A stretch of 64,000 nt of DNA from Candidatus Aminicenantales bacterium (GCA_046760305.1 JBHIDX010000001.1:13124-77123); one strand, 5' to 3'. Counted from the first letter of the stretch, positions 41,584 to 56,828 are shown. A program made the numbers and translations. Notes: generated by a model from the letters alone, not told the origin.

Positions 41584-41868
41584 TTACCTTAGAATATGGC
41601 GCTCTTCTGCTCTGATGGCCCATTTTATATGCGGCTGATTGATTAGTCTCTGAACATCCGGGTCTATTTTTAATCCCAGAGACTTTGCATTCCTGGAGAA
41701 AAGAGTGCTCATGTAATCGTAACGCTGTTTTTTTACTGGAGTTTCCTGGTAGGCTGAGTCTGGATTATCCGCCAAAGCTCTACTCATACCGGAATTTGCA
41801 TCAGAGGGGGGCATTAGAATAATCGCCAAACCGAGGACTAAGATTATTAAAACAATCCTTTTCTTCAT
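41584..41868 (-). CDS. small secreted hypothetical protein, first gene of the kinase/regulator operon
   Basis: Signal peptide MKKRIVLIILVLGLAIILMPPSDA. No recognisable domain. An alternative start at 41895 is possible. Confidence 0.45.
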   Translation of the reverse strand: MKKRIVLIILVLGLAIILMPPSDANSGMSRALADNPDSAYQETPVKKQRYDYMSTLFSRNAKSLGLKIDPDVQRLINQPHIKWAIRAEERHILR

Positions 41869-42071
41869 CAGGTAGTTAAAACATAAAGCTTTCATAATTT
41901 TTTGTCAATAGATGGAAGGAAGCATTCCCATATATATTTTTTCTATCCAGGTGAGCATTCGTGGTCGTCCAGGAAGAGGGGAAATCACCCTCTATATCAT
42001 CGACATGGGTTATTGACGCTCAGGCTCTCCTCTGGAAGAATTACACCTGTTAAGTGACAAAATTTGTTAAT

Positions 42072-42100
42072 TTGACAAAAAATAGCGGATTACTTATTAT
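42072..42100 (+). promoter_or_regulatory. candidate sigma70-type promoter for the pilus/secretion assembly operon
   Basis: Consensus TTGACA (42072-42077), exactly 17 nt spacer, TATTAT (42095-42100), 49 nt upstream of the first ATG (42149). GGGGAGAG Shine-Dalgarno site. Confidence 0.5.
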
Positions 42101-42148
42101 GAATCAAGTAGCTATAGACGGCGAAGGCTATAATTCCAGGGGAGAGTA

Positions 42149-43357
42149 ATGCCTTACTACTACTGTCGACTTGCTGCAGAGGATGGACGGGTTTTCTCCG
42201 AATCTTTTCTTGCCTCTTCTGCCCGGGAAGCCAAGAGACACTTCGAGCAAGAGGGACTTTGTGTTCTCGCAGTTAAGGTTGATTGGAAAAAAATTCATAT
42301 TCCAAATCTGCCTTTCCAGAAAAAGATTAAAGACAGAGATTTTATCATGTTCAACCAGGAGCTGGTGGCTCTTATCAAGGCAGGTTACCCAGTGCTGAAA
42401 AGCATAGAAATCATCCTCAGCCGTCTTAAGAACCTCCAGCTTAAGGAGCTTTTAATTAAGGTCGAAAGCGACATCCGGGGAGGCAAATCTTTATCTGAAG
42501 CTTTCCAGCCTTATGAGAAATATTTTTCCAAAGTTTACACTGCTTCTCTTATGGCCGGGGAGAGGAGCGGAAACCTGGCCGGAACAATTCAGCGTTATAT
42601 CGATTACCTCCAGGTCAACGCTCAAACCAAAAAGAGGATAAAAACAGCCCTTACCTATCCCTCCCTTCTTCTTGTCTTCTCTTTCAGCCTCTTGGCCGTT
42701 CTCATAAATTTTGTCCTTCCTCGATTCTCCCGCTTTTATGCCAGTTTTGAGGCAGAACTTCCTGCCATCACCAGGGCATTGATAGGATTTTCCTGGGCTG
42801 TGAGGAATAATGTGCTTGTCATTCTCGGTTTAATCTTTCTTCTTGTCTTCGTCTATTTTCAGATGAGAAGGAGGGAAAAATCTTTTATCTTCCTGGAGAG
42901 GATGAAGCTAAAAATTCCCTATGCCCGGGGAATATGGGTGGAATCTGCCATTGCTCTTTTCTCCAGAACGCTGAAACTTCTTCTGGAGGCAGGGATTTCC
43001 CTTCTCCAGGCTCTTCCTGTCGCCATTCAGGCGGTGCCTAATAAATTCCTGGCCAGGAGAATGGATAACGTACCCCTGTCTATTAAAAACGGGGAGAGTC
43101 TCTCCGATTCGCTGGCAAAATCAGGTTTCTTTACCCCCCTTTCTCTGGATATGGTCCGCATCGGAGAAACGTCTGCAAACTTGGAGGGGATGCTCGAGGA
43201 TGTGGCCAATGTTTATGAAGAGAGGATAAGGACGAAAATAGAAACTATTGTTTCTCTCGTCGAGCCGGTGATCATTATTTTTATGGGCTTGCTCATCGCT
43301 GCCATGCTCCTTTCTGTCTACCTGCCCATTTTTAACATCATCAGGGTGGTAAGATAA
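42149..43357 (+). CDS. type II secretion system F family platform protein (PilC/GspF)
   Basis: Two T2SSF repeats (FNQELVALIKAGYPVLKSIEI... and FSRTLKLLLEAGISLLQALP...), three TM segments. 402 aa. Confidence 0.92.
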   Translation: MPYYYCRLAAEDGRVFSESFLASSAREAKRHFEQEGLCVLAVKVDWKKIHIPNLPFQKKIKDRDFIMFNQELVALIKAGYPVLKSIEIILSRLKNLQLKELLIKVESDIRGGKSLSEAFQPYEKYFSKVYTASLMAGERSGNLAGTIQRYIDYLQVNAQTKKRIKTALTYPSLLLVFSFSLLAVLINFVLPRFSRFYASFEAELPAITRALIGFSWAVRNNVLVILGLIFLLVFVYFQMRRREKSFIFLERMKLKIPYARGIWVESAIALFSRTLKLLLEAGISLLQALPVAIQAVPNKFLARRMDNVPLSIKNGESLSDSLAKSGFFTPLSLDMVRIGETSANLEGMLEDVANVYEERIRTKIETIVSLVEPVIIIFMGLLIAAMLLSVYLPIFNIIRVVR

Positions 43358-44967
43358 TGGAAAAAAGAGATATAAAAAAAGATTTTCTCGAGGAAGAGGA
43401 AAAAACCAAACAACTGGCCGAAAGGTATCATATTCCCTACATCGACCTTTCCCGCCACTCTTTGAAGAGAGAGCTTGTTCAATCCGTTCCTGTTGATTTT
43501 CTCTACCGCTTCAATTTTATTCCACTTGAAGATAACGGCGAGACGGTGAATATTGCCATTGCTGACCCTTCTGACCTAGCAACCATCGATTCCATAGAAT
43601 CCTTTCTGGGGAAAAAAGTTCGTGTTTTTGCTGCCTCAAAGAGAGCCATTCACGAGGCTCTGCGGAAGAGTGAAACTGCCCTCCAGGTGCTGAGGGATGC
43701 CACAGAAGGGTTTATCACCCAGGTGGTGGAGAAGGAGAGCGGTGGAGAGGAAGAGGTTATCTCAGTAGAAAAACTGGCTGACCAGGACGGTTCCATCATT
43801 AAGCTCGTTAACTCGATAATATTCACTGCTGTCCAGAAAAGGGCAAGTGATGTCCACATCGAGTCAAGGGAGGATGGAGTTACCATAAAATACAGGATTG
43901 ACGGGGTGCTGAGCGAAGCCATGGAGCCGATCAGCAAAAAATTCCAGGCGCCGATAATCTCCAGAGTAAAAGTGATGTCAGACCTCGATATAGCTGAGAG
44001 GAGGGTTCCCCAGGACGGGAGGTTCAGGCTTAAGATAAAAGACAAAACTATAGACTTTCGCGTCTCTATAATGCCCAGCATTTATGGAGAAGATGCTGTC
44101 ATCCGTATTCTCGACAAAGAGATGATTACAGAAGCAATTCAGGACCTGAGGCTGGATTTGCTCGGCTTTTCCGAGCTTGTTTTAAAGAAATTCAGCAAGT
44201 ATATTACCCAACCCTACGGAATGGTTCTCGTCACCGGGCCTACCGGAAGCGGGAAAACAACCACACTTTACGCTGCTCTGACCGAGATAAAATCGCCAGA
44301 GGACAAGATTATCACCATCGAAGACCCGGTGGAGTATCAGATAGATGGCATTATCCAGATTCCGGTCAATGAGAAAAAGGGGCTGACTTTTGCCCGTGGA
44401 TTGCGCTCTATCCTGCGGCATGACCCAGATAAAATCATGGTCGGAGAAATCAGGGACCCTGAAACCGCCCAGATTGCTATCCAGTCAGCTCTGACCGGTC
44501 ATCTTGTCTTCACCACTGTCCATGCCAACAATGTTTTCGATGTTATCGGACGTTTCCTCCATATGCAGGTTGACCCTTACAGTTTCATTTCCGCGCTCAA
44601 CTGTATTCTGGCCCAGAGGCTGGTCAGAGTGCTCTGTCTTGAGTGCAAAACTCCTGTGAAGTACACCAGCGAACAGCTCATCGAATCAGGGCTTGACCCC
44701 CAGAGATACAGGCAGAAAGAGTTTTACGAGGCCCAGGGGTGCATTGAATGCGGCCACACCGGTTATAAAGGAAGAACTGCTATCGCTGAATTACTCGAAC
44801 TATCGGATGAAATCAGGGAGATGATACTCGATAAAAAGCCGCTCTCAGAGGTGAAAAAGAGAGCCAAAAAAGAGGGAATGGTGTTTTTAAGAGAAGTTGG
44901 GATGGAAAAAGTGCTCAAGGGAATCACAAGTCTCAAGGAGCTGAACAAAGTTACCTTTGTGGAATAA
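43357..44967 (+). CDS. GspE/PilB-family assembly ATPase
   Basis: N-terminal MshEN/GspE_N-like domain, Walker A GPTGSGKTTT, GEIRD (Asp box), tetracysteine CLEC...CIEC motif. 536 aa. Confidence 0.95.
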   Translation: MEKRDIKKDFLEEEEKTKQLAERYHIPYIDLSRHSLKRELVQSVPVDFLYRFNFIPLEDNGETVNIAIADPSDLATIDSIESFLGKKVRVFAASKRAIHEALRKSETALQVLRDATEGFITQVVEKESGGEEEVISVEKLADQDGSIIKLVNSIIFTAVQKRASDVHIESREDGVTIKYRIDGVLSEAMEPISKKFQAPIISRVKVMSDLDIAERRVPQDGRFRLKIKDKTIDFRVSIMPSIYGEDAVIRILDKEMITEAIQDLRLDLLGFSELVLKKFSKYITQPYGMVLVTGPTGSGKTTTLYAALTEIKSPEDKIITIEDPVEYQIDGIIQIPVNEKKGLTFARGLRSILRHDPDKIMVGEIRDPETAQIAIQSALTGHLVFTTVHANNVFDVIGRFLHMQVDPYSFISALNCILAQRLVRVLCLECKTPVKYTSEQLIESGLDPQRYRQKEFYEAQGCIECGHTGYKGRTAIAELLELSDEIREMILDKKPLSEVKKRAKKEGMVFLREVGMEKVLKGITSLKELNKVTFVE

Positions 44968-44970
44968 AAA

Positions 44971-45915
44971 ATGGCCGATTTAGCACAAAAGATTCGTCAC
45001 TCTCTCACCCAGCCCATCCTGCCCCATGCTGCCTTCCAGGTCTCCTCTCATTACTTGAGCGGGATGTTTGTTTCTGGAGCAGAGAGGAAAATAAAAGAGC
45101 GTTTTATACTTCCACTCAAAGAGGGAGTTATCGAGCCTTCGTTCAGTAAAAAAAATGTTCTCGATGAGGCTTTTCTGGTGGAAAAAGTCAGACAGGGCGC
45201 AGAAAAGCTTCATCTTTCAAAGAAGAGTATTGCCTGTTTGATTCCTGAGCCATGCTCTAAAATTTCTGTCTTAAATTTTGATTCTTTTCCTTCCTCCCAT
45301 AAAGAAAGGGAAGGGATCATACGCTGGCAGTTGAAAAAGAAAATGCCTTTCCTTCCCCCCGACACACGGCTTTCTTACGCCTCGATAGAATCCAACGCCA
45401 AGGTGAAAATACTAGTTTCTGGAGCGAGGACAGCGGTAGTGAAGGAGTACGAAGATTCGTTCGCCAAGGCCGGGCTGAGGGCCAGATTGGTCACTACCCC
45501 CACACTGAGCCTTTATAATCTGTTCGAGAAAGAGGATAGAGGTGACTCGATTGTGGTCAACATCGAGGAAGAAAGTATCAGCCTCATGGTTATCGTCAAC
45601 GGAGAAATCTCACTTTACCGGGCTAAACCCTTTGTTCACCATAGAACTGATAAGCCTCATCTCTCCCAGAAAATTGAGTATGTTGTTACCGAGCTGGAGA
45701 ACACAATAAATTTTATCCATGACAAAGAGGGAAAAAAAATTGATTCTCTGTGGATAAGAGTAGCGCTCATAGACCCTGAGGGTGAAGTGTTTTCGCGGCT
45801 AAAAGAAAGGCTCGTTCTCCCTCTGAAAGGAATGGATAGTTTTCTGCCTTCTGATTTGAGCTCCAGAGAGAGACAGATACTCGCTCCTCTGGCTGGAAGC
45901 ATAGTAAAGCTATGA
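44971..45915 (+). CDS. PilM/GspL-like cytoplasmic actin-fold assembly protein (divergent)
   Basis: Position directly before the PilN-like gene, size of 314 aa, alternating beta/alpha pattern. No strong motif recognised. Confidence 0.55.
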   Translation: MADLAQKIRHSLTQPILPHAAFQVSSHYLSGMFVSGAERKIKERFILPLKEGVIEPSFSKKNVLDEAFLVEKVRQGAEKLHLSKKSIACLIPEPCSKISVLNFDSFPSSHKEREGIIRWQLKKKMPFLPPDTRLSYASIESNAKVKILVSGARTAVVKEYEDSFAKAGLRARLVTTPTLSLYNLFEKEDRGDSIVVNIEEESISLMVIVNGEISLYRAKPFVHHRTDKPHLSQKIEYVVTELENTINFIHDKEGKKIDSLWIRVALIDPEGEVFSRLKERLVLPLKGMDSFLPSDLSSRERQILAPLAGSIVKL

Positions 45916-46466
45916 AAAGGATAGTCTTAAATCTGGCCACACATCCTTTCCGCAACAGGAGGCTGTTTTTTCTCCTCACTGGAGTAATGGTGGTGGTGAT
46001 TGCGCTTTTTTCCTTTCTTGCCCTTCACACCTACCTCACCTACCGGGATAAGGTGGGGCAAGTCCGTCTCCGGATGGAAGAGCTCGAAGCGAAGGTGAGG
46101 GTGGCCCAGAGAAGTGAACAGGAATTCATGCGCAGAATAGAGGAAGAAACAAAGCTCTACAAAGGAACAGTTGACTTGGTTAACAGCATTATTCTGAGAA
46201 AAAGTTTTTCCTGGACAGAATTTCTCGCCAGCCTGGAAAATTCTCTTCCTGACTCGAGTTACATTGTCTCCCTTGCTCCGATACTCATCGGAGGTTCAAG
46301 CATGGAAGTGAGATTTAAGGTTGTTTCCCGAAATCTTCGAGAGCTTTTAAAGTTAATAGACAACCTGAGGGCTCTGAAGTTCAAAGTAAGGGTTGAGGGG
46401 GAATCAAGAGATGAGAGTGGTTCTCTGATATCTGAGATTTCTTTAAGGTATGAAAGAAATGTTTGA
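45912..46466 (+). CDS. PilN-like bitopic assembly protein
   Basis: N-terminal LNLATHPF (compare the PilN INLLP motif), one TM, a coiled coil and a ferredoxin-like C-terminus. Confidence 0.6.
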   Translation: MKRIVLNLATHPFRNRRLFFLLTGVMVVVIALFSFLALHTYLTYRDKVGQVRLRMEELEAKVRVAQRSEQEFMRRIEEETKLYKGTVDLVNSIILRKSFSWTEFLASLENSLPDSSYIVSLAPILIGGSSMEVRFKVVSRNLRELLKLIDNLRALKFKVRVEGESRDESGSLISEISLRYERNV

Positions 46467-47010
46467 GCTGCTGAGTCAGAATGAGAGGAAAGCACTTCAG
46501 ATACTCCTGGTCTCTCTGCTGGTAGTGCTTATCTTTTTTTTCTTTGTTTCACTCAAGGAAAAAAGAAGTTACACCCAGGCAGTGGCGAGATTCACAACCA
46601 GGCAAGCAGAGTACGAGAGGCTCAACAGCCAGAGAGAGGAGAGAGAGAAAGAATGGCTTAAATGGAAGCAGGCTCATGAGGATATTAAAGATTTAAGAGA
46701 AAATTATTTCTATGCTGAAGATGATGGCTATAATCGCCTCAGGCTTTCGCTCGAGGGGATATTCGATGAGTCCGGAGTGCAGGTCTCTGACATTAAATAC
46801 TACTACTCTCAATTTGAGAAGGAAAAATTAAAAAAAGTAAATATCAGCTTCAACCTTACTGGTTCTTATTTTTCCCTGAAAAAATTCATCAACGCTGTAG
46901 AAAATCTTCAGAAATTTCTTCTTCTGGAAAAGATAGATTTCGTCGATACTCCAGCTGAAGGAGGCTTTTTGAAACTGAGAATAACTCTTGCAGGTTACTA
47001 TGCAGGTTAA
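46450..47010 (+). CDS. PilO/GspM-like bitopic assembly protein
   Basis: One TM (LQILLVSLLVVLIFFFFV), a coiled coil and a small C-terminal domain. Gene order follows the PilN-like gene. Confidence 0.5.
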   Translation: MKEMFELLSQNERKALQILLVSLLVVLIFFFFVSLKEKRSYTQAVARFTTRQAEYERLNSQREEREKEWLKWKQAHEDIKDLRENYFYAEDDGYNRLRLSLEGIFDESGVQVSDIKYYYSQFEKEKLKKVNISFNLTGSYFSLKKFINAVENLQKFLLLEKIDFVDTPAEGGFLKLRITLAGYYAG

Positions 47011-47518
47011 AAAATTTCTGGTGATAACTCTTTTTCTCGCACTTGCTGGAGGAATCTGCCTGGCTCAGGAAAAGATAACCAGAGAAAGCAATGAGAGCAG
47101 GGAAAAGAGGACCACTAAAATGGAGGAAAACCTGGTGAGGAAAGAACTTCTCACCGTAAACCCAAAGAAGCTGAAACCCCCCAAAAGAGACATTTTCTCC
47201 CCCCAAAGAGGAAATTTTTCCCTCCATGAATCCAGGCCCATAAATCAGGAAGAAGTCAAAAGAAAAGCCGAGCAGTTTTCCTCATTGATTGAGGAGAATT
47301 CTTCCCCAAACATGCTGGATATTGTTTATCTGGGCTATATCATCATGGAAAAGAAGATGACAGCCCTCATTGTTTTCGAGGACGAGACCTTTGCTGTTCA
47401 GGAGGGAGAATACATTACCCAGGATATCAGGATCAGTAAAGTATTACCTTCCTATATTGAGGTTGAAGGGCCTGGTAAGAAAAAAACAAGGTTTTCCTTA
47501 GAAGGAGAAGGCCAATGA
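47000..47518 (+). CDS. PilP/GspC-like secreted protein
   Basis: Signal peptide (KKFLVITLFLALAGGICLAQ), a disordered linker and a C-terminal beta domain (MTALIVFEDETFAVQEGEYITQDIRISKVLPSYIEV). Overlaps the secretin start (ATGA). Confidence 0.4.
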   Translation: MQVKKFLVITLFLALAGGICLAQEKITRESNESREKRTTKMEENLVRKELLTVNPKKLKPPKRDIFSPQRGNFSLHESRPINQEEVKRKAEQFSSLIEENSSPNMLDIVYLGYIIMEKKMTALIVFEDETFAVQEGEYITQDIRISKVLPSYIEVEGPGKKKTRFSLEGEGQ

Positions 47519-49650
47519 GAAAAACACTGCTTTTAGGCGTTGTACTTCTGACACTCTGGGGCTGCGAAACGTTCAGTCAGAATTACAAGCTGGGAACACA
47601 GGCAGCCATGAGTAAAGACTGGGAGGAGGCGGTTAAATATTTCGAGAGAGCTCTGTGGGAAAATCCGAAGAATTCTGTCTACCGCCTTGCTCTTTTCAGA
47701 GCCAAGAGAGCAGCCAGCTTTTTCTACCTTCAGGAAGCACGTCGTCTTGCAGCCCAGAAGAAAAAAGAAGAGGCACTCGAAATGTATAAAAAAGCCTATT
47801 CATTCGACCCGCTCAACAGGGACATAGTCGAGGAAGCAAAGCTTCTGATGAAAGAGGAGAAAAAAGGAAAACCAAAGAATAGAACTCCGAAAATAGAGCC
47901 TCCTGTGAAATTAAAGGTGCCCAAAGAAAAAGTGGAGTTGAAGTTTGTCTCTGCTACGCTGCGCACTATTTTTCAGACTCTGGGCAAATCTGCTGGTGTA
48001 AACATCCTTTTCGATGAACAGTTCAGGGACGTGCCCATGTCAATCACGCTTAAGGACATGAATTTTGAGGAAGCACTCAGCGCCCTCTGTATGGCGAGCA
48101 AGAATTTCTACCGTGTTGTTGACGAGAGAACAATCATCGTCGCTCCTGACCAGCCTCTAAAACGAGCCCAGTATGAGCTGAACGCGATTAAAACCTTCTA
48201 TCTCTCCAACATAAATGCTCAGGAGATTCAGGGCCAGCTGGCTCAGATGCTCCGCACCCAGTTCAGGGCTCCATCCATAATCGTTGACAAGAACCTCAAT
48301 ACCCTGACCATCAGGGATACTCCCGCCAACATAGAGCTTGCCGAGAAAATTCTCCGCAAATGGGATAAATCAAAGGCAGAGGTGGTGATTGACCTTGAAA
48401 TCATGGAGGTTTCTCGACTCAAGCTGAGACAGCTCGGACTTGATTTTGATGCCTACACCATAGGTTTTCGGTATGAAGGAGGAACAGAAGGCTGGGTCAA
48501 CCTTCAGGACCTGGATTTTACCAAGCTGGCAAATTTTGCCATCAGCCTGCCCATATCTCTCATCGATATTCTGGAATCGGATGCAGACACAAAGATTATT
48601 GCCCAGCCCAGACTGCGCGGGATTGAAGGTGAGGATATGGAGTACACTGTTGGTGATAGAGTTCCCATCCCGAGAACTACTTTTACTCCCATAGCAGCAG
48701 GTGGAGTAAGCCAGCAGCCCATCACTTCTTTCCAGTACGAAGACGTTGGGCTGGGGTTAAAAATAAAACCAAAAGTGCATCATGAGAAGGAAATAACACT
48801 CGAACTGGAGATGAAAATTACCTCCTTGGGGGGCAAAGGATACGCGGATATTCCCATCATTTCCACCAGAGAAGTGAAGAATACCATCAGGCTCAAGGAT
48901 GGAGAGACAAACCTGCTGGCAGGGCTTCTCCGTGATGAAGAGAGAAAAACACTCAAAGGCATAGCAGTGCTCAAGAATATTCCTGTTATCGGCAGCCTTT
49001 TTGCCAACACTGACCAGCAAATCCAGCAGACGGATGTCATCCTGACCATCACTCCTTACATCATCCGCACCGTCCCCATCGATGAAGAAGACCGGGAACC
49101 AGTCTGGATTGGCCTTGATGGATTCTCTGCTGCTCCGGCGGAGGCGCAGCTACCAAGACCCGAAGAGGAAGCTGTAGAGGAAAGGCTGAGGAGAGAGCGG
49201 AGAGCGGAAGAGGCCAGACTCTTCGAGGAGAAGGAAAGGAATCAAATTTTTCTCGCGCCCGCTGATTTCCAGACCAGACAGAACAGAGAGTTCAGGGTGA
49301 GCATTATACTCAGGACTCAGGAAGAAGTGGGAAATTTCTCGCTAACCGTTGGCTTTAACTCCAGGATTCTGGAGCTTACCGATGTTGTGCCCGGCTCGAT
49401 TATCGGTCAGCTTGGGGAGGAGGTGCCTTTCTTGAAAAACATCGATAATACCTCTGGCGTGGCCACCATCGGGTTTTCAAGCCCTGATGTAAGCAAAGGA
49501 ATCAAAGGAGCGGGGAGAGTGGCCACCCTTGTCTTCAAAGCCAAGGAAGCTGGAGAGGGAAACATTTCCCTTTCAGCAGTTTCAGCTAACAGGCCCACTG
49601 GTGAATCGGTTTCCTTCGTCACCAATGATTCCCATATTGTGGTCAAGTAG
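47515..49650 (+). CDS. secretin (GspD/PilQ family) lipoprotein with an N-terminal TPR and a C-terminal cohesin-like domain
   Basis: Lipobox LLTLWGC, a TPR-like segment, N-domains, and the secretin core (ADTKIIAQPRLRGIEGEDMEY...GIAVLKNIPVIGSLF). A charged linker (PEEEAVEERLRRERRAEEARLFEEKE) follows. The final 136 aa (49240-49647) follow a cohesin-like beta-sandwich pattern. Confidence 0.88.
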   Translation: MRKTLLLGVVLLTLWGCETFSQNYKLGTQAAMSKDWEEAVKYFERALWENPKNSVYRLALFRAKRAASFFYLQEARRLAAQKKKEEALEMYKKAYSFDPLNRDIVEEAKLLMKEEKKGKPKNRTPKIEPPVKLKVPKEKVELKFVSATLRTIFQTLGKSAGVNILFDEQFRDVPMSITLKDMNFEEALSALCMASKNFYRVVDERTIIVAPDQPLKRAQYELNAIKTFYLSNINAQEIQGQLAQMLRTQFRAPSIIVDKNLNTLTIRDTPANIELAEKILRKWDKSKAEVVIDLEIMEVSRLKLRQLGLDFDAYTIGFRYEGGTEGWVNLQDLDFTKLANFAISLPISLIDILESDADTKIIAQPRLRGIEGEDMEYTVGDRVPIPRTTFTPIAAGGVSQQPITSFQYEDVGLGLKIKPKVHHEKEITLELEMKITSLGGKGYADIPIISTREVKNTIRLKDGETNLLAGLLRDEERKTLKGIAVLKNIPVIGSLFANTDQQIQQTDVILTITPYIIRTVPIDEEDREPVWIGLDGFSAAPAEAQLPRPEEEAVEERLRRERRAEEARLFEEKERNQIFLAPADFQTRQNREFRVSIILRTQEEVGNFSLTVGFNSRILELTDVVPGSIIGQLGEEVPFLKNIDNTSGVATIGFSSPDVSKGIKGAGRVATLVFKAKEAGEGNISLSAVSANRPTGESVSFVTNDSHIVVK

Positions 49651-49712
49651 CCTCTTCATCCTTTTCAGGCGAATTGACTTGTTCAGGGTATTCAGCTAAA
49701 ATCCATTCCACC

Positions 49713-49786
49713 GGCGGTGTAGCTCAGGTGGTTAGAGCATGCGGCTCATATCCGCAGTGTCGGGGGTTCGAATCCCTCCACCGCCA
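49713..49786 (+). tRNA. tRNA with CAT anticodon (elongator Met by default; tRNA-Ile2/lysidine substrate not excluded)
   Basis: Manual cloverleaf: acceptor GGCGGTG/CACCGCC, D arm GCTC-AGGTGGTTA-GAGC, anticodon stem TGCGG/CCGCA with loop CTCATAT, T arm GGGGG-TTCGAAT-CCCTC, discriminator A. The G1-C72 pair excludes an initiator. No encoded CCA. Confidence 0.93.
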
Positions 49787-49821
49787 TACTTTTTCCACCT
49801 CTAAAAAGGAAAATTATTTCC

Positions 49822-51183
49822 ATGCTCCTGTCCAAGGTTGAAAAAGCAATAAATAAATACCACCTGCTTAAGAAAGGGGAGAGAGTTCTTGTTGCCTACT
49901 CAGGAGGGGTTGATTCGACAGCTCTTCTTCATCTTCTCAGAGAAATCAGCGCAAAGTGGTCGCTCGAACTCATCCTAGCCCATTTTAATCATAAGCTGAG
50001 GAAGCGGGCTGAAGGAGATGAGTTTTTCGTAAGAAAAATTTCTGAGAAATATTCTCTTCCCCTTGTGGTGGGAAGCGAGGATGTGCAGGCTTATGCCAGG
50101 AAAGAAGGACTTAACTTGGAGGAGGCTGCACGCAAGCGGCGCTATGCATTTCTTGAAAAAACCTCAGTACAGTGCAGGGCAGCAAAGATAGCCACAGGCC
50201 ATACCATGACCGACCAGGCTGAAACATTCCTCATGCGTCTTCTGCGGGGGAGCGGCCGAGGAGGGCTGGGTGGTATTTATCCTGTGGTGGAAGGAAAGAT
50301 TATTCGTCCTCTTATTCTTGCTGAGAGGGAGGAAGTGGAAGCCTACCTCGAGGAGCATGGGTTTGAATTCAGACTTGACGAGAGCAATTTTGATCGCCGC
50401 TTCTTGAGGAATAGAATAAGATTAGAGCTCATTCCTTTCATAAAAGAAAAATTTCAGCCCCAAATTGTTCCTCATCTAAGCCACATCGCCTCAATCTTTC
50501 GAGAAGAGGAAGACTTTCTTGAACATCTATCAGCCAGGAAAGCAGAAGAAATTCTCCTCAGTGAGCAGGGCAGGATAAGGCTGGATATGAAAGCCGTTGA
50601 TTCGCTTCCAGATGGTCTTAAACGCAGGGTAATGCGCTCCTTTATCCGCAAATTAAAAGGAGACCTGAGGGGTGTTTCTTTTTTTGATATCGAGCAACTT
50701 CTTGAGCTCAGAGATAACAGAGAGTGTCATCTCGGTAAAAGCCTTTTTTTAAGGAGAGAAGGAGGAAAACTCTTCTTAAAGGGAGAATCATCCACCACAG
50801 TAAGCTACGAGTATCGATGGCATGGAAGGAGTTTTCTGGAGATACGTGAGCTGGGTTTGAAGTTTGGAGCTAAGGTAGGGGAGAAAAGGCCTTCCTTCAT
50901 TTTTGATGACTCCAAGCGAGTATTTCTCGACCTGGAAAAACTTCACTTTCCGCTTATTGTTCGCAGCCGGAAAGAAGGAGACAGGTATCAACCGCTGGGA
51001 GCACCGGGAAGGAAAAAGCTTAAGGAGATAATGCGCGCCAGAGGAATACCTCCTACTCAGAGGGATAAGAAGCCTGTGTTTTTGAGCGGCAGCGACATTA
51101 TCTGGGTGCTGGGTCTCCCTGTCTCGGAAAAGTTCAAGGTGGCCAAGGACACAGAAAAGGTGTTTGTGATTCAGAAACTCTGA
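49822..51183 (+). CDS. tilS: tRNA(Ile)-lysidine synthase
   Basis: PP-loop VAYSGGVDSTALLHLL and HFNHKLR. 453 aa with the TilS C-terminal domains. Confidence 0.93.
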   Translation: MLLSKVEKAINKYHLLKKGERVLVAYSGGVDSTALLHLLREISAKWSLELILAHFNHKLRKRAEGDEFFVRKISEKYSLPLVVGSEDVQAYARKEGLNLEEAARKRRYAFLEKTSVQCRAAKIATGHTMTDQAETFLMRLLRGSGRGGLGGIYPVVEGKIIRPLILAEREEVEAYLEEHGFEFRLDESNFDRRFLRNRIRLELIPFIKEKFQPQIVPHLSHIASIFREEEDFLEHLSARKAEEILLSEQGRIRLDMKAVDSLPDGLKRRVMRSFIRKLKGDLRGVSFFDIEQLLELRDNRECHLGKSLFLRREGGKLFLKGESSTTVSYEYRWHGRSFLEIRELGLKFGAKVGEKRPSFIFDDSKRVFLDLEKLHFPLIVRSRKEGDRYQPLGAPGRKKLKEIMRARGIPPTQRDKKPVFLSGSDIIWVLGLPVSEKFKVAKDTEKVFVIQKL

Positions 51184-51401
51184 TTAGTCTTTTTAGGTGA
51201 TAATTTCATTACCATCCCTTGTTTGAAACAAGAGGAGCAATATCACCATCTATTTACCCCGGAGCGGCGATTGACGCTCCTACAGGAAAGGGGGATAGTA
51301 TATCCATGCGGCAGGGGAGGAAGAAATAGAGGTACATTCCCTCCCCTCTGGAAGCGATTTCATCCCTAAAGATGAGGAAGATGAGAGGAAAAATCATCTC
51401 C

Positions 51402-51803
51402 ATGAAGGAGAAGAGAGCAAAGAAGAAGGGTTTTACTCTGGTTGAAGTGCTGCTCACAGTGATGATTCTTGCTGTCGCCCTCACAGCTTTACTCACTGTT
51501 TTTGTCTACGGTTTCCACCTTCTCTCGAGGATGAATCAGATTGCTCTTGCCACTCAGGCAGTTCAGGAGGAAACAGAATACATTCGGACTCTCCCCTATG
51601 ATGATATTCTCAACCTTGGTTCCTCTTTTGAACATGAGAATCTTTCTCAACTTGAAAACGGGCAGGGATTAATTACCCTCGAGGATTCTGTAGGGCCTGA
51701 TATAAAAAAGCTCACAGTAAGCGTTGTCTGGACCTACAGGGGAAGACAGCTCCGCAAGGATATTACCACCTACATCACAAGGGAGGGGATAGACAGGAAG
51801 TAA
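51402..51803 (+). CDS. prepilin-type minor (pseudo)pilin, GspI/PilV-like
   Basis: Leader MKEKRAKKKG then FTLVEVLLTVMILAVAL (cleavage/methylation motif with Glu5). The C-terminus reads KKLTVSVVWTYRGRQLRKDITTYI, typical of I/V-type minor pilins. The ORF-track start at 51372 would give an atypically long leader. Confidence 0.8.
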   Translation: MKEKRAKKKGFTLVEVLLTVMILAVALTALLTVFVYGFHLLSRMNQIALATQAVQEETEYIRTLPYDDILNLGSSFEHENLSQLENGQGLITLEDSVGPDIKKLTVSVVWTYRGRQLRKDITTYITREGIDRK

Positions 51804-51820
51804 AAGCGTCGAAAAAAGGC

Positions 51821-52432
51821 ATGATGGAAAAAAGAGCTAGTAAAAAAGAAGAAGGGTTTACCCTTCTGGAGTTAATCTTTGTTGTTGCTCTCGGCTCGCT
51901 GATCATGGCTGCCCTCATCGGCCTCTACTCCACAGGGCAGAGGTACTATGTTACTGAGAGCGCCCGCTCAGATATAATCAGGGAGGGACGCTCTGTGCTT
52001 CTCTGGATGAGCAGGGATATAAAAGAGTCTGTCCAAGTAGTTGAAAGTTATGACGTCTATTCTACCTCAACAAGTTCACTCGTTCTCAAAGTCCCCTCTA
52101 TTGATGCCAACGGTGATATCATCGATGTTGATACTGAGTTCGACTACATCATCTACCGCCTTAACCCTGATTACCCCTCCAAACTGGAGAGGAAGGTTCT
52201 GCCCAAGGCCGGAGTGAGCTCAAGAAGTGGGAGCAATAAGGTTTTGGCCACTAAGGTAAATTCTTTTACTTTAAAGTCAGGAGGATCAGAGCTTTCTGGT
52301 GTGGCAGATTTATCGACAGTGGAAAGTATTGAGATTTCTGTTGTTTTACAGGAGATAAGGTTTGGCCGCACTTTCCAGGAAACTCTCAACACCCTGGTTA
52401 AACTCAGGAATAAAGAAATCACTTCTAGTTGA
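51821..52432 (+). CDS. prepilin-type minor (pseudo)pilin, GspJ/PilW-like
   Basis: Leader ...KKEEG then FTLLELIFVVALGSLIMA (Glu5 present), followed by SVLLWMSRDIKES, as in the J/W-type pattern. 203 aa. Confidence 0.75.
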   Translation: MMEKRASKKEEGFTLLELIFVVALGSLIMAALIGLYSTGQRYYVTESARSDIIREGRSVLLWMSRDIKESVQVVESYDVYSTSTSSLVLKVPSIDANGDIIDVDTEFDYIIYRLNPDYPSKLERKVLPKAGVSSRSGSNKVLATKVNSFTLKSGGSELSGVADLSTVESIEISVVLQEIRFGRTFQETLNTLVKLRNKEITSS

Positions 52433-53709
52433 TGATGGCCCAAGGGAAGCAAAAAAACAAAAAGAGATTGAAAGCGATGAAAGGAAGAAGGGCCAAAGAA
52501 GTAAAGATGAGGCACCGAGAGCAAGGCTCTATCCTGGTGGCGGGTATAATTGTCCTTGCTTCAATGGTCATCCTCATTCTTCCTTTTATCTTCCATAAAT
52601 CATCCCAGTTAAGGCTGACCGAGAAATCTTACAGGAGTTATGCCGCCCTTTCTCTGGCAGAGGCCGGGGTGGAGAGAGCAATCTGGGAGCTAAATTTCGG
52701 TGACATCTCAACCTGGGAGGGCAACGATACTCTACGCACCAAGTCAATCTCATCTTTTCAGGCAGCGGATGGAGATGTAATCGGCGATATAAACATCAGC
52801 GTCTACAACCCTACAGCTACAAATCCGGTTGTTGAAGCCAGCGGAAGTGTTTCTCTCTCTGGTGCTCAGAAGGTTGTCAAGACCATTAGGGTTGAACTTG
52901 AACAGGATGGCAGTCCCCTGTTTGATTGTGGGGTATTCGCCGACTCAGGAGTCACGGTTGACTCAAACGTAATAATTCAGGGAAATATCGGTACCAACGG
53001 CACTGCGCCAAATTCAATTTACCTCAGGTCAAACAGTCAGGTTTTGGGAGATGCGATCTGCGGACCGGGTGGAGATCCTGAATCAGCCATTTATCTGAGT
53101 GGAAGTGCCTCAATCTCGGGAGAGAAGCGAGCTGCTTCAGAGGTCAAAGAGTTTCCTTCAGTAGAGGTTCCAACCGGACTCCCATTCCAGGGTTCTTTCT
53201 ACAAAACGAGTGGGACCACTGTTATCAGCGAAGATGGCGAGTATTCCTCATTTATACTTGATTCAAATGCTATCGTTGAGATAAGCGGAGATGTAACGCT
53301 TTATGTCACAGGTGAATTTTCCCTTCTGAGCAACGCCCAGCTTCAAATACAGCAGGGGAGCAGTCTGACCGTTTATCTTGATGCACCACTTAATTTAAGC
53401 AGCAACTGTGAAGTTAACACTTCTCTCCAGGATGCGACTAAACTTGCTTTCTACGGAACAGATAATGTTACAGGATTAATCGAGCTTAATTCAAACGCCA
53501 CCATTTATGGAGCCGTTTATATGCCCAATGCAGACCTGGTTCTTTCCAGCAATATAGGGTTGGTCGGCGCCATCTACGGCAAGAGCATCGAGCTCAATTC
53601 TAATGTTACGGTCGTCTTTGATGAGGGTCTTGGTGGTTTGAGCGGGCCTGCTGGAGGCGGCGGTACTGGAAGCTATGTTGTCAAATCCTGGCAGGAGAAT
53701 CCTAATTAA
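52429..53709 (+). CDS. large GspK/PilX-like tip protein, paralog A (PilX-N helix plus beta-helix-like C-terminal region)
   Basis: Basic leader, then ...EQG-SILVAGIIVLASMVILILPF (no Glu5, as in GspK/PilX) and AEAGVERAIWEL. The C-terminal half has repetitive short beta-strand motifs (NSNATIYGAVYMPNADLVLSSNIGLVGAIYGKSIELNSNVTVVFDEGL). Confidence 0.7.
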   Translation: MMMAQGKQKNKKRLKAMKGRRAKEVKMRHREQGSILVAGIIVLASMVILILPFIFHKSSQLRLTEKSYRSYAALSLAEAGVERAIWELNFGDISTWEGNDTLRTKSISSFQAADGDVIGDINISVYNPTATNPVVEASGSVSLSGAQKVVKTIRVELEQDGSPLFDCGVFADSGVTVDSNVIIQGNIGTNGTAPNSIYLRSNSQVLGDAICGPGGDPESAIYLSGSASISGEKRAASEVKEFPSVEVPTGLPFQGSFYKTSGTTVISEDGEYSSFILDSNAIVEISGDVTLYVTGEFSLLSNAQLQIQQGSSLTVYLDAPLNLSSNCEVNTSLQDATKLAFYGTDNVTGLIELNSNATIYGAVYMPNADLVLSSNIGLVGAIYGKSIELNSNVTVVFDEGLGGLSGPAGGGGTGSYVVKSWQENPN

Positions 53710-53710
53710 C

Positions 53711-53723
53711 ATGAATTATTCAT
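53711..53723. promoter_or_regulatory. 13-nt palindrome ATGAATTATTCAT (candidate operator), site 1
   Basis: Perfect 6-1-6 palindrome starting 2 nt after the paralog A stop. Its reverse complement recurs at 53830-53842, and the core TGAATAATTCA recurs at 63556-63566. Confidence 0.35.
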
Positions 53724-53766
53724 AAATATCAACTTTTTTAACACGGTTATGTTGCTAGAGGTAAAG

Positions 53767-53818
53767 AAATCAGGAACATGTACCTATTTTCCGAAATCGG
53801 TGACGTGTCCCTTGATTT
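53767..53818. repeat. ~52-nt imperfect palindromic (REP-like) element, copy B
   Basis: AAATCAGGAACATGTACCTATTTTCCGAAATCGGTGACGTGTCCCTTGATTT. By my manual alignment, 47 of 52 positions are identical to copy A (27616-27666). Lies between the two PilX-like paralogs. Confidence 0.8.
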
Positions 53819-53829
53819 CTAGGTTTTAA

Positions 53830-53842
53830 ATGAATAATTCAT
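53830..53842. promoter_or_regulatory. 13-nt palindrome ATGAATAATTCAT (candidate operator), site 2
   Basis: Reverse complement of site 1. About 45-60 nt upstream of the paralog B start. Confidence 0.35.
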
Positions 53843-53845
53843 GGA

Positions 53846-53875
53846 AACCTGGACTATTTGTGAATAGTCCAGGTT
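53846..53875. repeat. perfect 13-bp stem / 4-nt loop hairpin
   Basis: AACCTGGACTATT-TGTG-AATAGTCCAGGTT. No U-tract follows on either strand. Ends 11 nt before the TTG start of paralog B. Confidence 0.7.
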
Positions 53876-53886
53876 AAGAAAGTCAT

Positions 53887-55155
53887 TTGAAAAAAAATCA
53901 GCACATGAGAGCCGGATCAGGAGAAAAAAGTCGTGGTTTTATCCTCGTCATAGGAGTGGTTGTTCTTACTTCCCTTCTCCTTCTTGCCCTGCCCTTTATT
54001 TACCAGCTCATGTCAGAACGGAAGATTTCGGAGAAATCCTATAAGGTTTTAACAGCCATGAGCATGGCAGAAGCAGGCGCTGAGCGAGCCATATGGGAGC
54101 TTGCTTATGGTGATATTTCAAGCTGGAGTGGTAACAGCTCTTTGCGAACAAAAACCATCTCTGACTTTCAGGCAGCTGGTGGCGCTGTCCTCGGTGATAT
54201 AGAGATCAGTGTCTCAGACCCTGAGAGCAACAGTCCTGTGGTGGAAGCTACAGGCAGGGTACCCTACTCCGGTTCAACTACCGTGGATAGGACGGTGAAA
54301 GTTGTCCTCGAGAGAGAGGCACTTTTCAGTTACGCTGCTTTTGGCGTGGAAAGAGTTACTGTCCAGGAAGAGGCTCTGGTAGACAGCTACGACTCGCGGG
54401 ATGGTCCTTACGGAGATTTGAACATCAGTTTTAAGGGGAATGTGGGCACTAATGATACGAGAAATAACCGCATCAGTATAGTAGGTACTTCTGTAGTCAT
54501 GGGGAACGCATATTCAGGCCCGGGAAGTGATCCTGAGCTTGCTATTCAGGTGGACGAAAGTGCTACTCTTTCCGGCTCAAAAGAAGCGCTCCAGAAGGCA
54601 AAAACCATAGTCAGTGTTCTACCTCCAGAAGGACTTCCTCAGAGAGGAAATTATAATCTCAGTCCTGGAGGATTTGATACCATCAGCTCCAGCGGGGAGT
54701 ACAGTTCTTTTACTCTTGAGGATAATGCCTCGCTGACCATAACAGCAAATGTTACCCTTTTTGTTAACGGAAACTTTACCATGAAAAGCTCATCTCAACT
54801 GGACATTCCTGATGGGGTAACTGTATTTATTTATCTTGCATCTAAATTCAAGCAGTATCCCGGTTCTTCGGTTAACAATCTTTCCCAGGACCCGACCAGG
54901 CTTATCATCCTCGGAACCCAGACCTGCACTGACTTTGACTTTAAGAATGGCTCAGCTTTTTATGGTGCAGTTTACGTGCCCGCCGCTCCCCTTGATATAG
55001 GTGAAACAGCAGATGTTTACGGTTCAATGGTGGGGAAAAGGGTGACGGTCAAAAGCTCGGCTAGTCTCCACTATGATGAAGCACTACAAGAAGTAATAGT
55101 TCCTTCCATTGAACTCAATTCTTATGTCGTCAAGTCCTGGAGGAAACATTCCTGA
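53887..55155 (+). CDS. large GspK/PilX-like tip protein, paralog B
   Basis: ...KSRG-FILVIGVVVLTSLLLLALPF (no Glu5), AEAGAERAIWELAYGDISSWSGNSSLRTKTISDFQAAGG (collinear with paralog A), and a C-terminus GSAFYGAVYVPAAPLDIGETADVYGSMVGKRVTVKSSASLHYDEAL. An alternative ATG start lies at 53905. Confidence 0.7.
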   Translation: MKKNQHMRAGSGEKSRGFILVIGVVVLTSLLLLALPFIYQLMSERKISEKSYKVLTAMSMAEAGAERAIWELAYGDISSWSGNSSLRTKTISDFQAAGGAVLGDIEISVSDPESNSPVVEATGRVPYSGSTTVDRTVKVVLEREALFSYAAFGVERVTVQEEALVDSYDSRDGPYGDLNISFKGNVGTNDTRNNRISIVGTSVVMGNAYSGPGSDPELAIQVDESATLSGSKEALQKAKTIVSVLPPEGLPQRGNYNLSPGGFDTISSSGEYSSFTLEDNASLTITANVTLFVNGNFTMKSSSQLDIPDGVTVFIYLASKFKQYPGSSVNNLSQDPTRLIILGTQTCTDFDFKNGSAFYGAVYVPAAPLDIGETADVYGSMVGKRVTVKSSASLHYDEALQEVIVPSIELNSYVVKSWRKHS

Positions 55156-55157
55156 AT

Positions 55158-55229
55158 GGGGTCAGGTCTTACATTCAAACATTTTCAGCAGAATTCCTTT
55201 CAAAAAGTATTAATGTAAGACCTGACCCC
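55158..55229. repeat. 18-bp perfect inverted repeat with a 36-nt spacer between convergent genes
   Basis: GGGGTCAGGTCTTACATT (55158-55175) and AATGTAAGACCTGACCCC (55212-55229). The right arm encodes the last codons of the prepilin peptidase (…WGQVLH*). Confidence 0.75.
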
Positions 55230-55971
55230 AGAGGGAGAGAATCTTTTCTCCCCAGAGGAGGGAGATGTAGGCAGCGGGCGCAAGAAAGCTGCCAAAAGGA
55301 AGGGAGTACTGAAAGTCCTTTTTCCTGAAGCTGATAATCAGAATACCTATTAGAGCTCCGCTGAAGGAAGCCAAAACCAGGGTAAGGAAGGTCCTTTCCC
55401 AGCCAAGAAAAGCTCCGAGCATGAGCATCATGGTTACATCTCCCATACCAAGGCCTTCTTTTTTTCTTGCAAGAAGGTAGGCCAGATACACAAAAACAAG
55501 AAAGCCTCCACCCACCACAGCTCCTACGAGTGCTTCTCTGAGGCTTAAGTCCGGGCGGAAGATTGAATAAACCAGAGCTAGAAGAAGAGAAGGCAAGGTG
55601 ATTTCGTCAGGAAGAAGCTGGTGCTTGAGGTCGATAAAAAAAAGTACAATCAGGGCACTTGTGAAAAGACAGGAAGCTAAGAGCGCCAATCGCAGACCAT
55701 AGCTGAAAAAAAGAACGAGGAAACTTAGAGGAGTAATGAGTTCAACAAGCGGGTAGAAAAGGGAGATTCTGGCTTTACAGGCGCGGCATTTTCCTCCGAG
55801 GAAAAGGTATGACAGAAGAGGAATGTTATCATACCATTTTATTCTAGTTCCACACTCAGGGCAGGAGGAAGGAGGCCTTAAAAGGCTCATTCTCAAAGGC
55901 AGGCGATAAATGAGCACATTGAGGAAGCTTCCCCAGGCAAGGCCGGCAAGGATGATGATTACCGCTTCCAT
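55210..55971 (-). CDS. prepilin peptidase (A24 family, PilD/GspO type)
   Basis: N-terminal CPECGTRI...GKCRACKARIS zinc knuckles and the GMGDVTMMLMLGAFLGW catalytic Asp motif. 253 aa polytopic protein. Confidence 0.92.
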   Translation of the reverse strand: MEAVIIILAGLAWGSFLNVLIYRLPLRMSLLRPPSSCPECGTRIKWYDNIPLLSYLFLGGKCRACKARISLFYPLVELITPLSFLVLFFSYGLRLALLASCLFTSALIVLFFIDLKHQLLPDEITLPSLLLALVYSIFRPDLSLREALVGAVVGGGFLVFVYLAYLLARKKEGLGMGDVTMMLMLGAFLGWERTFLTLVLASFSGALIGILIISFRKKDFQYSLPFGSFLAPAAYISLLWGEKILSLWGQVLH

Positions 55972-56828
55972 GGTATTATGCTCGGCTTTACTTCACCTTT
56001 TTTGGGATTATATACGTAATCCTGACCATCAAAGTCTTTGGGCAAGGAATTCAATAAACCTGCTGAGACAAGCTCTTGGAGTTCGGCTGGTTTGCGTCCG
56101 TAAATTTCTGTGAATCTGTCAATTGCTTCCTGGATGTTTTTTATATCGAGGGCAGCTTTTACTTGGTAAAGATGATTTGAGGCAATTTTTTTTATCCTCT
56201 CGTCTTCAGCTTCCTGATAGACTTCAAGCCATGTCTTCCAGGCAGTTTCGTAGTCTCCAGTCATGAAGGCAGCGTTGGCATAGAGCCGTTTGGCAATGGC
56301 CGGAGCTCCTTCGATTTCCATTGTTTTTTGGTAGTAATGGCGAGCAAGCCTGTAGTCTTTTATCACAAGCTGGGCGTAGTGACCTGCCTCGAAAGGAAGA
56401 ATCCACTCCTTCGGGTTGTGGATGAGCCCCCTGTCCAGGAGCTGGAGTGCGAGCTCGAAATCGCGGGCGTCGTAGATGGCAATCAAGGCTCCTATCTGGT
56501 AGGGATCGAGGTAATGGGGGTCAAGCTCTGAGATGACGGAGAAAATATGGTCGAGGTAGTTGAAACGCTCGGCGATTCCGGTGTTGCTGTAATACTGGAT
56601 AGCCCAAATGTAGATTAGGTCTGCAGCGAGAGAGTTGTAGCCGAAGGCGGCAAGCTTGAGGTATTTTCCGGAGGGAACGTAGATAACAGATGATCCGGCT
56701 ATTTTTTGGCGGGGGACTTTTTCCAGTTCGTAGCGGGAGAGAAGGAAAGCACTGCAGCTGATGATGATAAAAATGATAAACATGAGACTGAGAAATCGGT
56801 TGTTTCCTCCAAAGTTGAGCTTCGCCAT
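55959..56828 (-). CDS. membrane-anchored TPR-like helical-repeat protein
   Basis: One N-terminal TM (FLSLMFIIFIIISCSAFLL), then helical repeats (ALQLLDRGLIHNPKEW, RLARHYYQKTMEIEG, YETAWKTWLEVYQEA). Overlaps the peptidase start by 13 nt. Confidence 0.55.
   Translation of the reverse strand: MAKLNFGGNNRFLSLMFIIFIIISCSAFLLSRYELEKVPRQKIAGSSVIYVPSGKYLKLAAFGYNSLAADLIYIWAIQYYSNTGIAERFNYLDHIFSVISELDPHYLDPYQIGALIAIYDARDFELALQLLDRGLIHNPKEWILPFEAGHYAQLVIKDYRLARHYYQKTMEIEGAPAIAKRLYANAAFMTGDYETAWKTWLEVYQEAEDERIKKIASNHLYQVKAALDIKNIQEAIDRFTEIYGRKPAELQELVSAGLLNSLPKDFDGQDYVYNPKKGEVKPSIIPWKR

Follow-up and report, generated by a model that had tools for sequence, protein, structure and literature searches.

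A probable type IVa-like pilus machine with a ComZ-like tip module in an uncultured Aminicenantes bacterium

Gene content and organization of the machine operon

We analyzed a stretch of 64 kilobases (kb) of DNA (hereafter, the window) from an uncultured Aminicenantes bacterium of the Acidobacteriota, focusing on a locus at positions 42072-55971 that encodes a type IV pilus-like machine, a set of minor pilins and a prepilin peptidase. A previous interpretation made from the DNA by itself (hereafter, the sequence-only reading) had listed the genes of this locus; all of them were found between these positions, and both the component list and the overlapping or abutting arrangement of the genes were borne out by Pfam matches and gene coordinates. 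Domains were assigned with Pfam and NCBIfam/TIGR profiles and tRNAs with ARAGORN, structures were modelled with AlphaFold2 and searched against the PDB with Foldseek, and profiles were compared with each other using hhalign. For comparison we fetched 79 related loci from species-representative genomes and mapped the proteins of the window onto them. Taken together, the results make it likely that the locus encodes a type IVa-like pilus machine equipped with a ComZ-like tip module. The major pilin of this machine, and a retraction ATPase if there is one, would be encoded elsewhere in the genome. Genes described below lie on the plus strand unless marked (-).

The genes at 42149-49650 form a single tightly packed operon in the order PilC-PilB-PilM-PilN-PilO-PilP-secretin, with overlaps of 1 nucleotide (nt) between the platform and ATPase genes, 4 nt between pilM and pilN and between pilP and the secretin gene, and 17 nt between pilN and pilO. 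The operon is preceded by a predicted sigma-70-type promoter (42072-42100, TTGACA-N17-TATTAT) that agrees with the consensus at 11 of 12 positions and is the best site of the region. In most related loci the platform gene is preceded by a matching TTGACA-N17-TAATAT whose spacer contains GGATAACC. Most of the 79 related loci retain both the operon and its promoter, up to the limits of each contig. Nearly all have an ATPase with 76-87% identity to that of the window, and in one the figure is 67%. Complete Aminicenantes chromosomes that bear the operon are CP070825.1, OY969586.1 and OY970261.1.

The first gene (42149-43357) encodes a PilC/GspF-type inner-membrane platform protein (T2SSF, E = 1.9e-48), scoring 287 bits with the GspF profile and 246 bits with that of PilC, each under the equivalog cut-off. 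It is followed by the gene for a probable PilB-type extension ATPase (43357-44967; T2SSE, E = 2.9e-130, plus MshEN), in which we observed a CxxC...CxxC motif. This protein scores 545 bits with the PilB profile TIGR02538 (cut-off, 676 bits) and 537 bits with the GspE profile (cut-off, 630 bits), and its best matches among PDB sequences were PilB of Geobacter (434 bits), PilB of Myxococcus (408 bits) and GspE of Vibrio (372 bits).

PilM-like and PilN-like proteins are encoded by two separate genes. The former (44971-45915), a cytoplasmic actin-fold protein, matches PilM_2 weakly (22 bits) and the TIGR01175 pilM profile with 43 bits, under its cut-off, and the latter (45912-46466), a bitopic protein that matches no Pfam family, was assigned by its position between PilM and PilO and by its N-terminal motif. 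That motif, LNLAxHPLRNRR, is followed by a transmembrane segment and is kept among relatives; it resembles the PilM-binding INLLP motif of PilN. The next gene (46450-47010) encodes a PilO/GspM-like bitopic protein that matches PilO above the cut-off (23.8 bits) and GspM_XpsM with 32.9 bits. A PilP-like periplasmic protein (46988-47518) with a signal peptide matches no family and was assigned by position and overall shape; its C-terminal region is conserved among relatives, and its start is probably the ATG at 47000, the choice of the gene caller. With the secretin, the set of separate PilM and PilN plus PilO and PilP is thus complete at the locus, the matches of these four proteins being weak.

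A predicted lipoprotein secretin with a cohesin domain

The last gene of the machine operon (47515-49650) encodes an outer-membrane secretin (Secretin, E = 1.2e-34; Secretin_N) that also contains TPR and Cohesin (E = 5.7e-11) domains. It is a predicted lipoprotein with the lipobox LWGC, in which Cys17 is invariant. The TPR region is N-terminal, and the cohesin domain (residues 601-688) lies at the C-terminus beyond a charged linker. Homologs are 57-77% identical, and nearly all of the named ones come from Candidatus Aminicenantes genome bins; the window itself matches a metagenome assembly. Among the 120 best of them, 118 have the cohesin domain. Secretins of other Acidobacteriota, at 37% identity, do not have it. 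A search for dockerin-like motifs, which would mark possible cohesin partners, was negative for the window and for 86 loci. Three relatives (L026, L046 and L064) carry a second gene for a cohesin-bearing secretin, with no other machine genes nearby.

The TPR lipoprotein part is reminiscent of the separate pilotins PilF, PilW and Tgl. The combination of TPR and cohesin domains in a lipoprotein secretin is the most unusual feature of the locus and lay outside the argument of the sequence-only reading. Our literature search found no description of a cohesin-bearing secretin, and this domain combination merits a structural look.

Minor pilins and prepilin peptidase

Downstream of the machine operon, the genes at 51372-55155 constitute a separate operon for minor pilins, comprising a PilV/GspI-like protein, a PilW/GspJ-like protein and two proteins in the PilX/GspK position that lack Glu5. 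The two operons are separated by a gene for a tRNA with the anticodon CAT (49713-49786), the only tRNA that ARAGORN reported at the locus, and by tilS (49822-51183), which encodes a tRNA-Ile lysidine synthetase (ATP_bind_3, TilS_C; TIGR02432, 182 bits, above the cut-off). Neither belongs to the pilus system. The sequence-only reading had taken the pair for an insertion that splits one locus. In every one of 16 related loci examined (L002, L006 and L008 among them), however, a tRNA(CAT) gene lies immediately 5' of tilS; this holds even for L083, which has no pilus operon upstream, and the pair is therefore a conserved housekeeping neighbour rather than an insertion. Promoter-like sites precede both the tRNA gene (49674-49702) and the pilin genes (51271-51299); because the latter have a promoter-like site of their own, they do not represent a resumption of the first operon. 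Plausibly the tRNA is tRNA-Ile2, on which TilS acts, and not tRNA-Met, although its identity elements, viewed by eye, gave no clear assignment to either.

The first gene of the module (51372-51803) encodes a probable PilV/GspI-class minor pilin of 143 amino acids (aa), hereafter p143, with an N_methyl domain and a prepilin motif with Glu5. Its family, compared with pilins of the canonical operons found in related genomes (see below), matches the PilV-like pilins with E = 5e-16 over 76 columns, and the FimU-like pilins with E = 4.7e-9 over 53 columns, from the leader into the first part of the N-terminal helix. The TIGR gspI score is 21 bits (cut-off, 44 bits), and matches in a sequence-profile search of the PDB were confined to the shared N-terminal helix. 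The predicted structure (predicted local distance difference test score, pLDDT, 86) consists of a single long helix and a three-strand sheet. The protein has no Gly14, Pro22 or Cys, and its family is narrow, with 55 homologs found and identities of 46-83% among relatives. The second gene (51821-52432) encodes a PilW/GspJ-class minor pilin of 203 aa (p203), again with N_methyl, a prepilin motif and Glu5, the family of which matches PilW of sister genomes (E = 3.3e-12, 66 columns). Weak NCBIfam matches connect p203 with HpsC and cassette pseudopilins, and the two small pilins with HpsB and HpsC. GFxxxE motifs occur only twice in six frames of the 64 kb, and no third such pilin was found.

The remaining two genes encode large cap pilins that are paralogs of each other (42% identity). 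X1 (52429-53709; DUF7305, E = 7.8e-19; N-terminus G|SILVAG) occupies the PilX/GspK position and has a beta-solenoid, and X2 (53887-55155; DUF7305, E = 1.4e-20; weak PilX_N; N-terminus G|FILVI) is ComZ-like. In 52 cap homologs Gly-1 is nearly invariant and no Glu5 is conserved, and the absence of Glu5 is a mark of the top subunit in GspK and PilX (bioRxiv 10.64898/2026.02.12.705559). The AlphaFold2 model of X2, built with 52 homologs (pLDDT 90), predicts a helix at residues 12-74, a four-strand pilin sheet at 86-143 and a solenoid at 151-397, after which a last strand (413-421) rejoins the pilin sheet. The large size of the caps would thus be explained by a beta-solenoid inserted ahead of the last pilin strand. 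The top Foldseek match of the model was ComZ (6QVI; E = 2.6e-7, probability 1.0), followed by ice-binding solenoid proteins. ComZ itself combines a GspK-like pilin domain with a solenoid resembling that of ice-binding proteins, which follows the penultimate strand and precedes the last. It has been shown to bind DNA as well as the GspI-like pilin PilA2, and a position at the pilus tip has been argued for it (PMC6561018). The family of solenoid caps is very large: a threshold of E 1e-3 gives 10,789 cluster representatives, and one of 1e-30 still gives 1,276.

These assignments agree with two claims of the sequence-only reading. The pilins are indeed exclusively of tip type (GspI/J/K or PilV/W/X), since p143 is PilV-like, p203 is PilW-like and the large paralogs lack Glu5, and the K/X-type component is both duplicated and enlarged, by solenoids. 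A score as a major pilin for the product at 51372, the start of which had been given as 51402, would have counted against that reading, and the product did not score as one.

A convergent gene (55210-55971, -) for a PilD-type prepilin peptidase and N-methyltransferase (A24_N_bact, E = 5.8e-34; Peptidase_A24, E = 1.1e-21) closes the locus, as had been described, and is syntenic in relatives with a TPR-like gene and an ABC-2 transporter. In the window, the start of the peptidase gene is overlapped by a gene (55959-56828, -) for a protein of 289 aa with a lipobox-like IISC sequence and weak TPR matches, which in relatives is always found with the peptidase gene and the ABC-2 transporter. The protein could be a pilotin-like helper or could be associated with the transporter.

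Variability of the interval between tilS and pilD

The interval between tilS and pilD (51184-55209 in the window) varies among species and represents a hot spot, exemplified by loci L006, L008, L024, L043, L050 and L085. In six species, including that of the closed chromosome CP070825.1, the interval has no pilin gene at all. Nine species have a canonical operon at this site that encodes a GspH/FimU-like pilin, a PilV-like pilin, PilW (PF16074), PilX (PilX_N) and PilY1 (PF05567), in which the FimU-like pilin has Gly14 and Pro22 and PilY1 is about 1200 aa long. Other species (L043, L050 and L083) have a module of the type found in the window, in which the number of cap paralogs ranges from one to three. 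Combinations of the two types also occur: in the hybrid locus L085, PilV and PilW of the window type are followed by a small PilX, by PilY1 and by a solenoid cap, and in L008 a solenoid cap comes after a canonical set. Gene order in relatives, a check that the sequence-only reading had called for, is accordingly conserved for the machine operon in most loci and variable for the pilin module between tilS and pilD. The contents of the interval indicate that the machine is paired with type IVa-style tip sets and that modules move.

Some species have an asparagine synthase gene in the interval. On CP070825.1, a lone cap gene (L082, 10001-11278), with no PilV-like or PilW-like genes alongside, lies beside an integrase and a transposase about 45-65 kb from the machine.

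Nature of the machine and its tip

We propose that the PilC platform, the PilB ATPase, the PilM/N/O/P alignment proteins and the secretin would form an assembly machine for which the convergently encoded PilD cuts the leader peptides. Together with one Glu5-less cap (X1 or X2), the PilV-like and PilW-like pilins would prime fibre assembly and remain at the tip, from which the cap solenoid would project, most likely as a ligand-binding or adhesive "plug" in the role that PilY1 has in proteobacteria. Such a substitution has already been proposed for cyanobacteria, where all PilX proteins share the solenoid design and the solenoid would assume the "plug" role of PilY1 (bioRxiv 10.64898/2026.02.12.705559). 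The two caps probably provide two alternative tips on one PilV-PilW base.

We regard the machine as type IVa-like because PilM and PilN are separate, because GspC, GspL, GspG and GspH are missing and, above all, because sister genomes carry PilY1 modules at the same site. The sequence-only reading had suggested a distinct subtype of type IV filament. This suggestion was not supported, given that the ATPase matches type IVa PilB proteins better than GspE, that PilM and PilN are separate, that the canonical FimU-PilV-PilW-PilX-PilY1 operon occupies the same site in sister genomes, and that the cap design is already known from ComZ and cyanobacterial PilX. The locus is a recognizable variant of known systems, and no new category of type IV filament is needed.

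Several observations weigh against this interpretation. No major pilin was found in the 64 kb or within 10 kb on either side of the secretin gene in the 79 related loci, and neither the window nor these flanks yielded PilT or any other paralog of the ATPase. Publicly available copies of the genes at the ends of the window are all on short contigs. The statement of the sequence-only reading that a major pilin, GspH, PilT and PilY1 are missing holds for the entire window, which also has no FimU-type adapter. Genes for type IVa pili are usually spread over several loci, and the lack of a major pilin and PilT at this locus is for that reason not evidence of their absence from the genome. It does mean that the idea of a normal fibre being built is drawn by analogy. 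No core protein reaches the NCBIfam equivalog cut-off of either type IVa pili or type II secretion, and the secretin matches GspD and PilQ structures with equal scores of about 80 bits. Among the pilins, the class of p203 is read from its N-terminal 66 residues only, and the pilin-type fold matches of p143 were limited to EpsI and XcpV, both non-significant (E near 0.4). For the caps, template modelling scores (TM-scores) between X2 and ComZ are low (0.26), and a sequence-profile search of the PDB with the cap family gave one chance match and no similarity to ComZ. Because of the low TM-scores and the undetectable sequence similarity, we describe X1 and X2 as ComZ-like in predicted architecture, not as proven homologs.

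A type II secretion-like machine, in which a short pseudopilus made of tip pilins only or of very few subunits would push substrates through the secretin, could account for the missing major pilin and PilT, for the resemblance of the minor pilins to the GspI/J/K classes and for the slightly higher scores of GspF, GspD and GspM models over pilus models with the platform, the secretin and the PilO-like protein. We nevertheless consider it highly unlikely, as no genes for GspC, a fused GspL, GspG or GspH are present, PilM and PilN are encoded separately, the ATPase matches PilB better, sister genomes have PilY1 and a FimU-like pilin at the same site, and the scores miss all equivalog cut-offs of type II secretion (GspD, 148 of 351 bits; GspE, 537 of 630 bits; GspF, 287 of 424 bits). 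Little credence can likewise be given to the idea that p143 itself builds a new, thin filament as its major subunit, which would make the system complete within the window. In favour of this idea, the gene for p143 opens the module and has a promoter-like site in front of it, its product is the best conserved protein of the module among relatives, and major pilins of very small size are known from other bacteria. Against this, p143 matches the PilV-like pilin of canonical operons rather than the FimU-like one, its only pilin-type fold matches are to minor pseudopilins, and it is missing Gly14 and Pro22, which are typical of fibre-forming pilins. Moreover, the same gene precedes those for PilX and PilY1 in L085, and several genomes that bear the machine lack this gene at the site.

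An alternative about function rather than machine type is that the module belongs to a DNA-uptake (competence) pilus as in Thermus, with X1, X2 or both acting as a DNA receptor at the tip instead of an adhesin. ComZ, which has DNA-binding lysines, is the best structural match and binds both DNA and a GspI-like pilin (PMC6561018), and of the two cyanobacterial sets with a solenoid PilX, one primes competence pili; the other set serves motility and adhesion (bioRxiv 10.64898/2026.02.12.705559). Considering also that similarity to ComZ was not detected in sequence, that the solenoid family is very large and diverse, and that no competence genes were seen in the window, we think a competence function unlikely, and we prefer the type IVa-like machine with a ligand-binding or adhesive tip.

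More tentatively, the findings could be combined into a single scheme, which we regard as possible but doubtful: one machine with interchangeable tip modules at a tilS-pilD recombination hot spot, in which solenoid PilX proteins form PilY1-independent tips on a shared PilV-PilW base and a self-piloting lipoprotein secretin recruits a partner through its cohesin domain. If this were true, the secretin architecture would represent an undescribed class.

Since the same site can hold PilX with PilY1, solenoid caps, both or neither, these genomes offer a natural comparison of tip types, one that bears on the recent proposal that solenoid PilX replaces PilY1. Aminicenantes are widespread and uncultured, and the locus is a concrete candidate for adhesion or DNA uptake in these bacteria, for which our literature search found no published description of pili.

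Neighbouring regulatory genes

Upstream of the machine operon lie three genes on the opposite strand. One (37270-38658, -) encodes a sigma-54-dependent response regulator of the NtrC/AtoC type (Response_reg, Sigma54_activat, HTH_8) that scores under the NCBIfam equivalog cut-offs. It is 66-82% identical and syntenic in relatives, divergent to the pilus operon in most of the roughly 50 loci that are long enough, a conservation of position that suggests a part in the control of the pilus. Its partner (38663-41503, -), also syntenic across relatives, is a multi-pass sensor histidine kinase (HisKA_7TM, GAF, PAS, HisKA, HATPase_c) with an AtoS-like profile as its best match, under the cut-off. We considered and rejected the names PilS and PilR for this two-component system, the matches of which are only of the generic AtoS/AtoC and NtrC types. 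The third gene (41584-41895, -) encodes a protein of 103 aa with a hydrophobic N-terminus that matches no Pfam or NCBIfam family and is found at the same place in most relatives (33-58% identity). A second sigma-54 activator, without a receiver domain, is encoded 25 kb upstream (11931-12926) and adjoins the gene for a large TPR protein (9617-11698).

A search for sigma-54 promoters, prompted by the neighbouring regulator, found none near the start of either pilus operon, and fewer matches overall than expected by chance. The upstream regions of the two operons (42012-42038 and 51270-51354) share two 10-mers. ATTGACGCTC has no copies in the window other than these two, and CCTCTGGAAG comes after it in each region. 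As these words are not conserved in relatives, we rejected them as a regulatory site.

Comparison with known systems

The machine has the same protein set as the type IVa systems of Pseudomonas, Myxococcus and Geobacter, including separate PilM and PilN and a PilB-like ATPase, and sister genomes have the FimU-PilV-PilW-PilX-PilY1 operon at the same site. It differs from these systems in that pilC, pilB and pilMNOPQ are gathered in one operon, that all of its proteins score under the equivalog cut-offs, that the secretin has TPR and cohesin additions, and that PilT and the major pilin were not observed at the loci. With the GspI-GspJ-GspK tip of type II secretion the module shares three subunit classes and an enlarged top subunit without Glu5, and the predicted fold of p143 is nearest, with non-significant scores, to those of EpsI and XcpV. 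GspK, however, is enlarged by an alpha-helical insertion elsewhere in the fold (PMC6561018), and GspG, GspH, GspC and GspL have no counterparts here.

The pilA1-pilA2-pilA3-comZ-pilA4 cluster of Thermus resembles the module in encoding a large cap together with a GspI-like pilin and one further minor pilin (PMC6561018). Thermus ComZ (6QVI) and the X2 model agree in having a triangular beta-solenoid set into a pilin fold after the penultimate strand and before the last, and both systems have a machine with PilM/N/O and a secretin. The caps described here are shorter (~420 aa, with a shorter solenoid; ComZ chains have roughly 500-520 residues) and come as two paralogs, with no GspH-like PilA1 and no major pilin next in the operon. 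Cyanobacterial sets, including HpsA-C, similarly combine PilV, PilW and a PilX with a bulky solenoid without PilY1 (bioRxiv 10.64898/2026.02.12.705559), and in both cases two alternative sets or caps are found per organism. The cyanobacteria belong to another phylum. In the present module one PilV-PilW pair, encoded in the same operon, is common to both caps, and relatives in the Aminicenantes carry PilY1, sometimes beside a solenoid cap.

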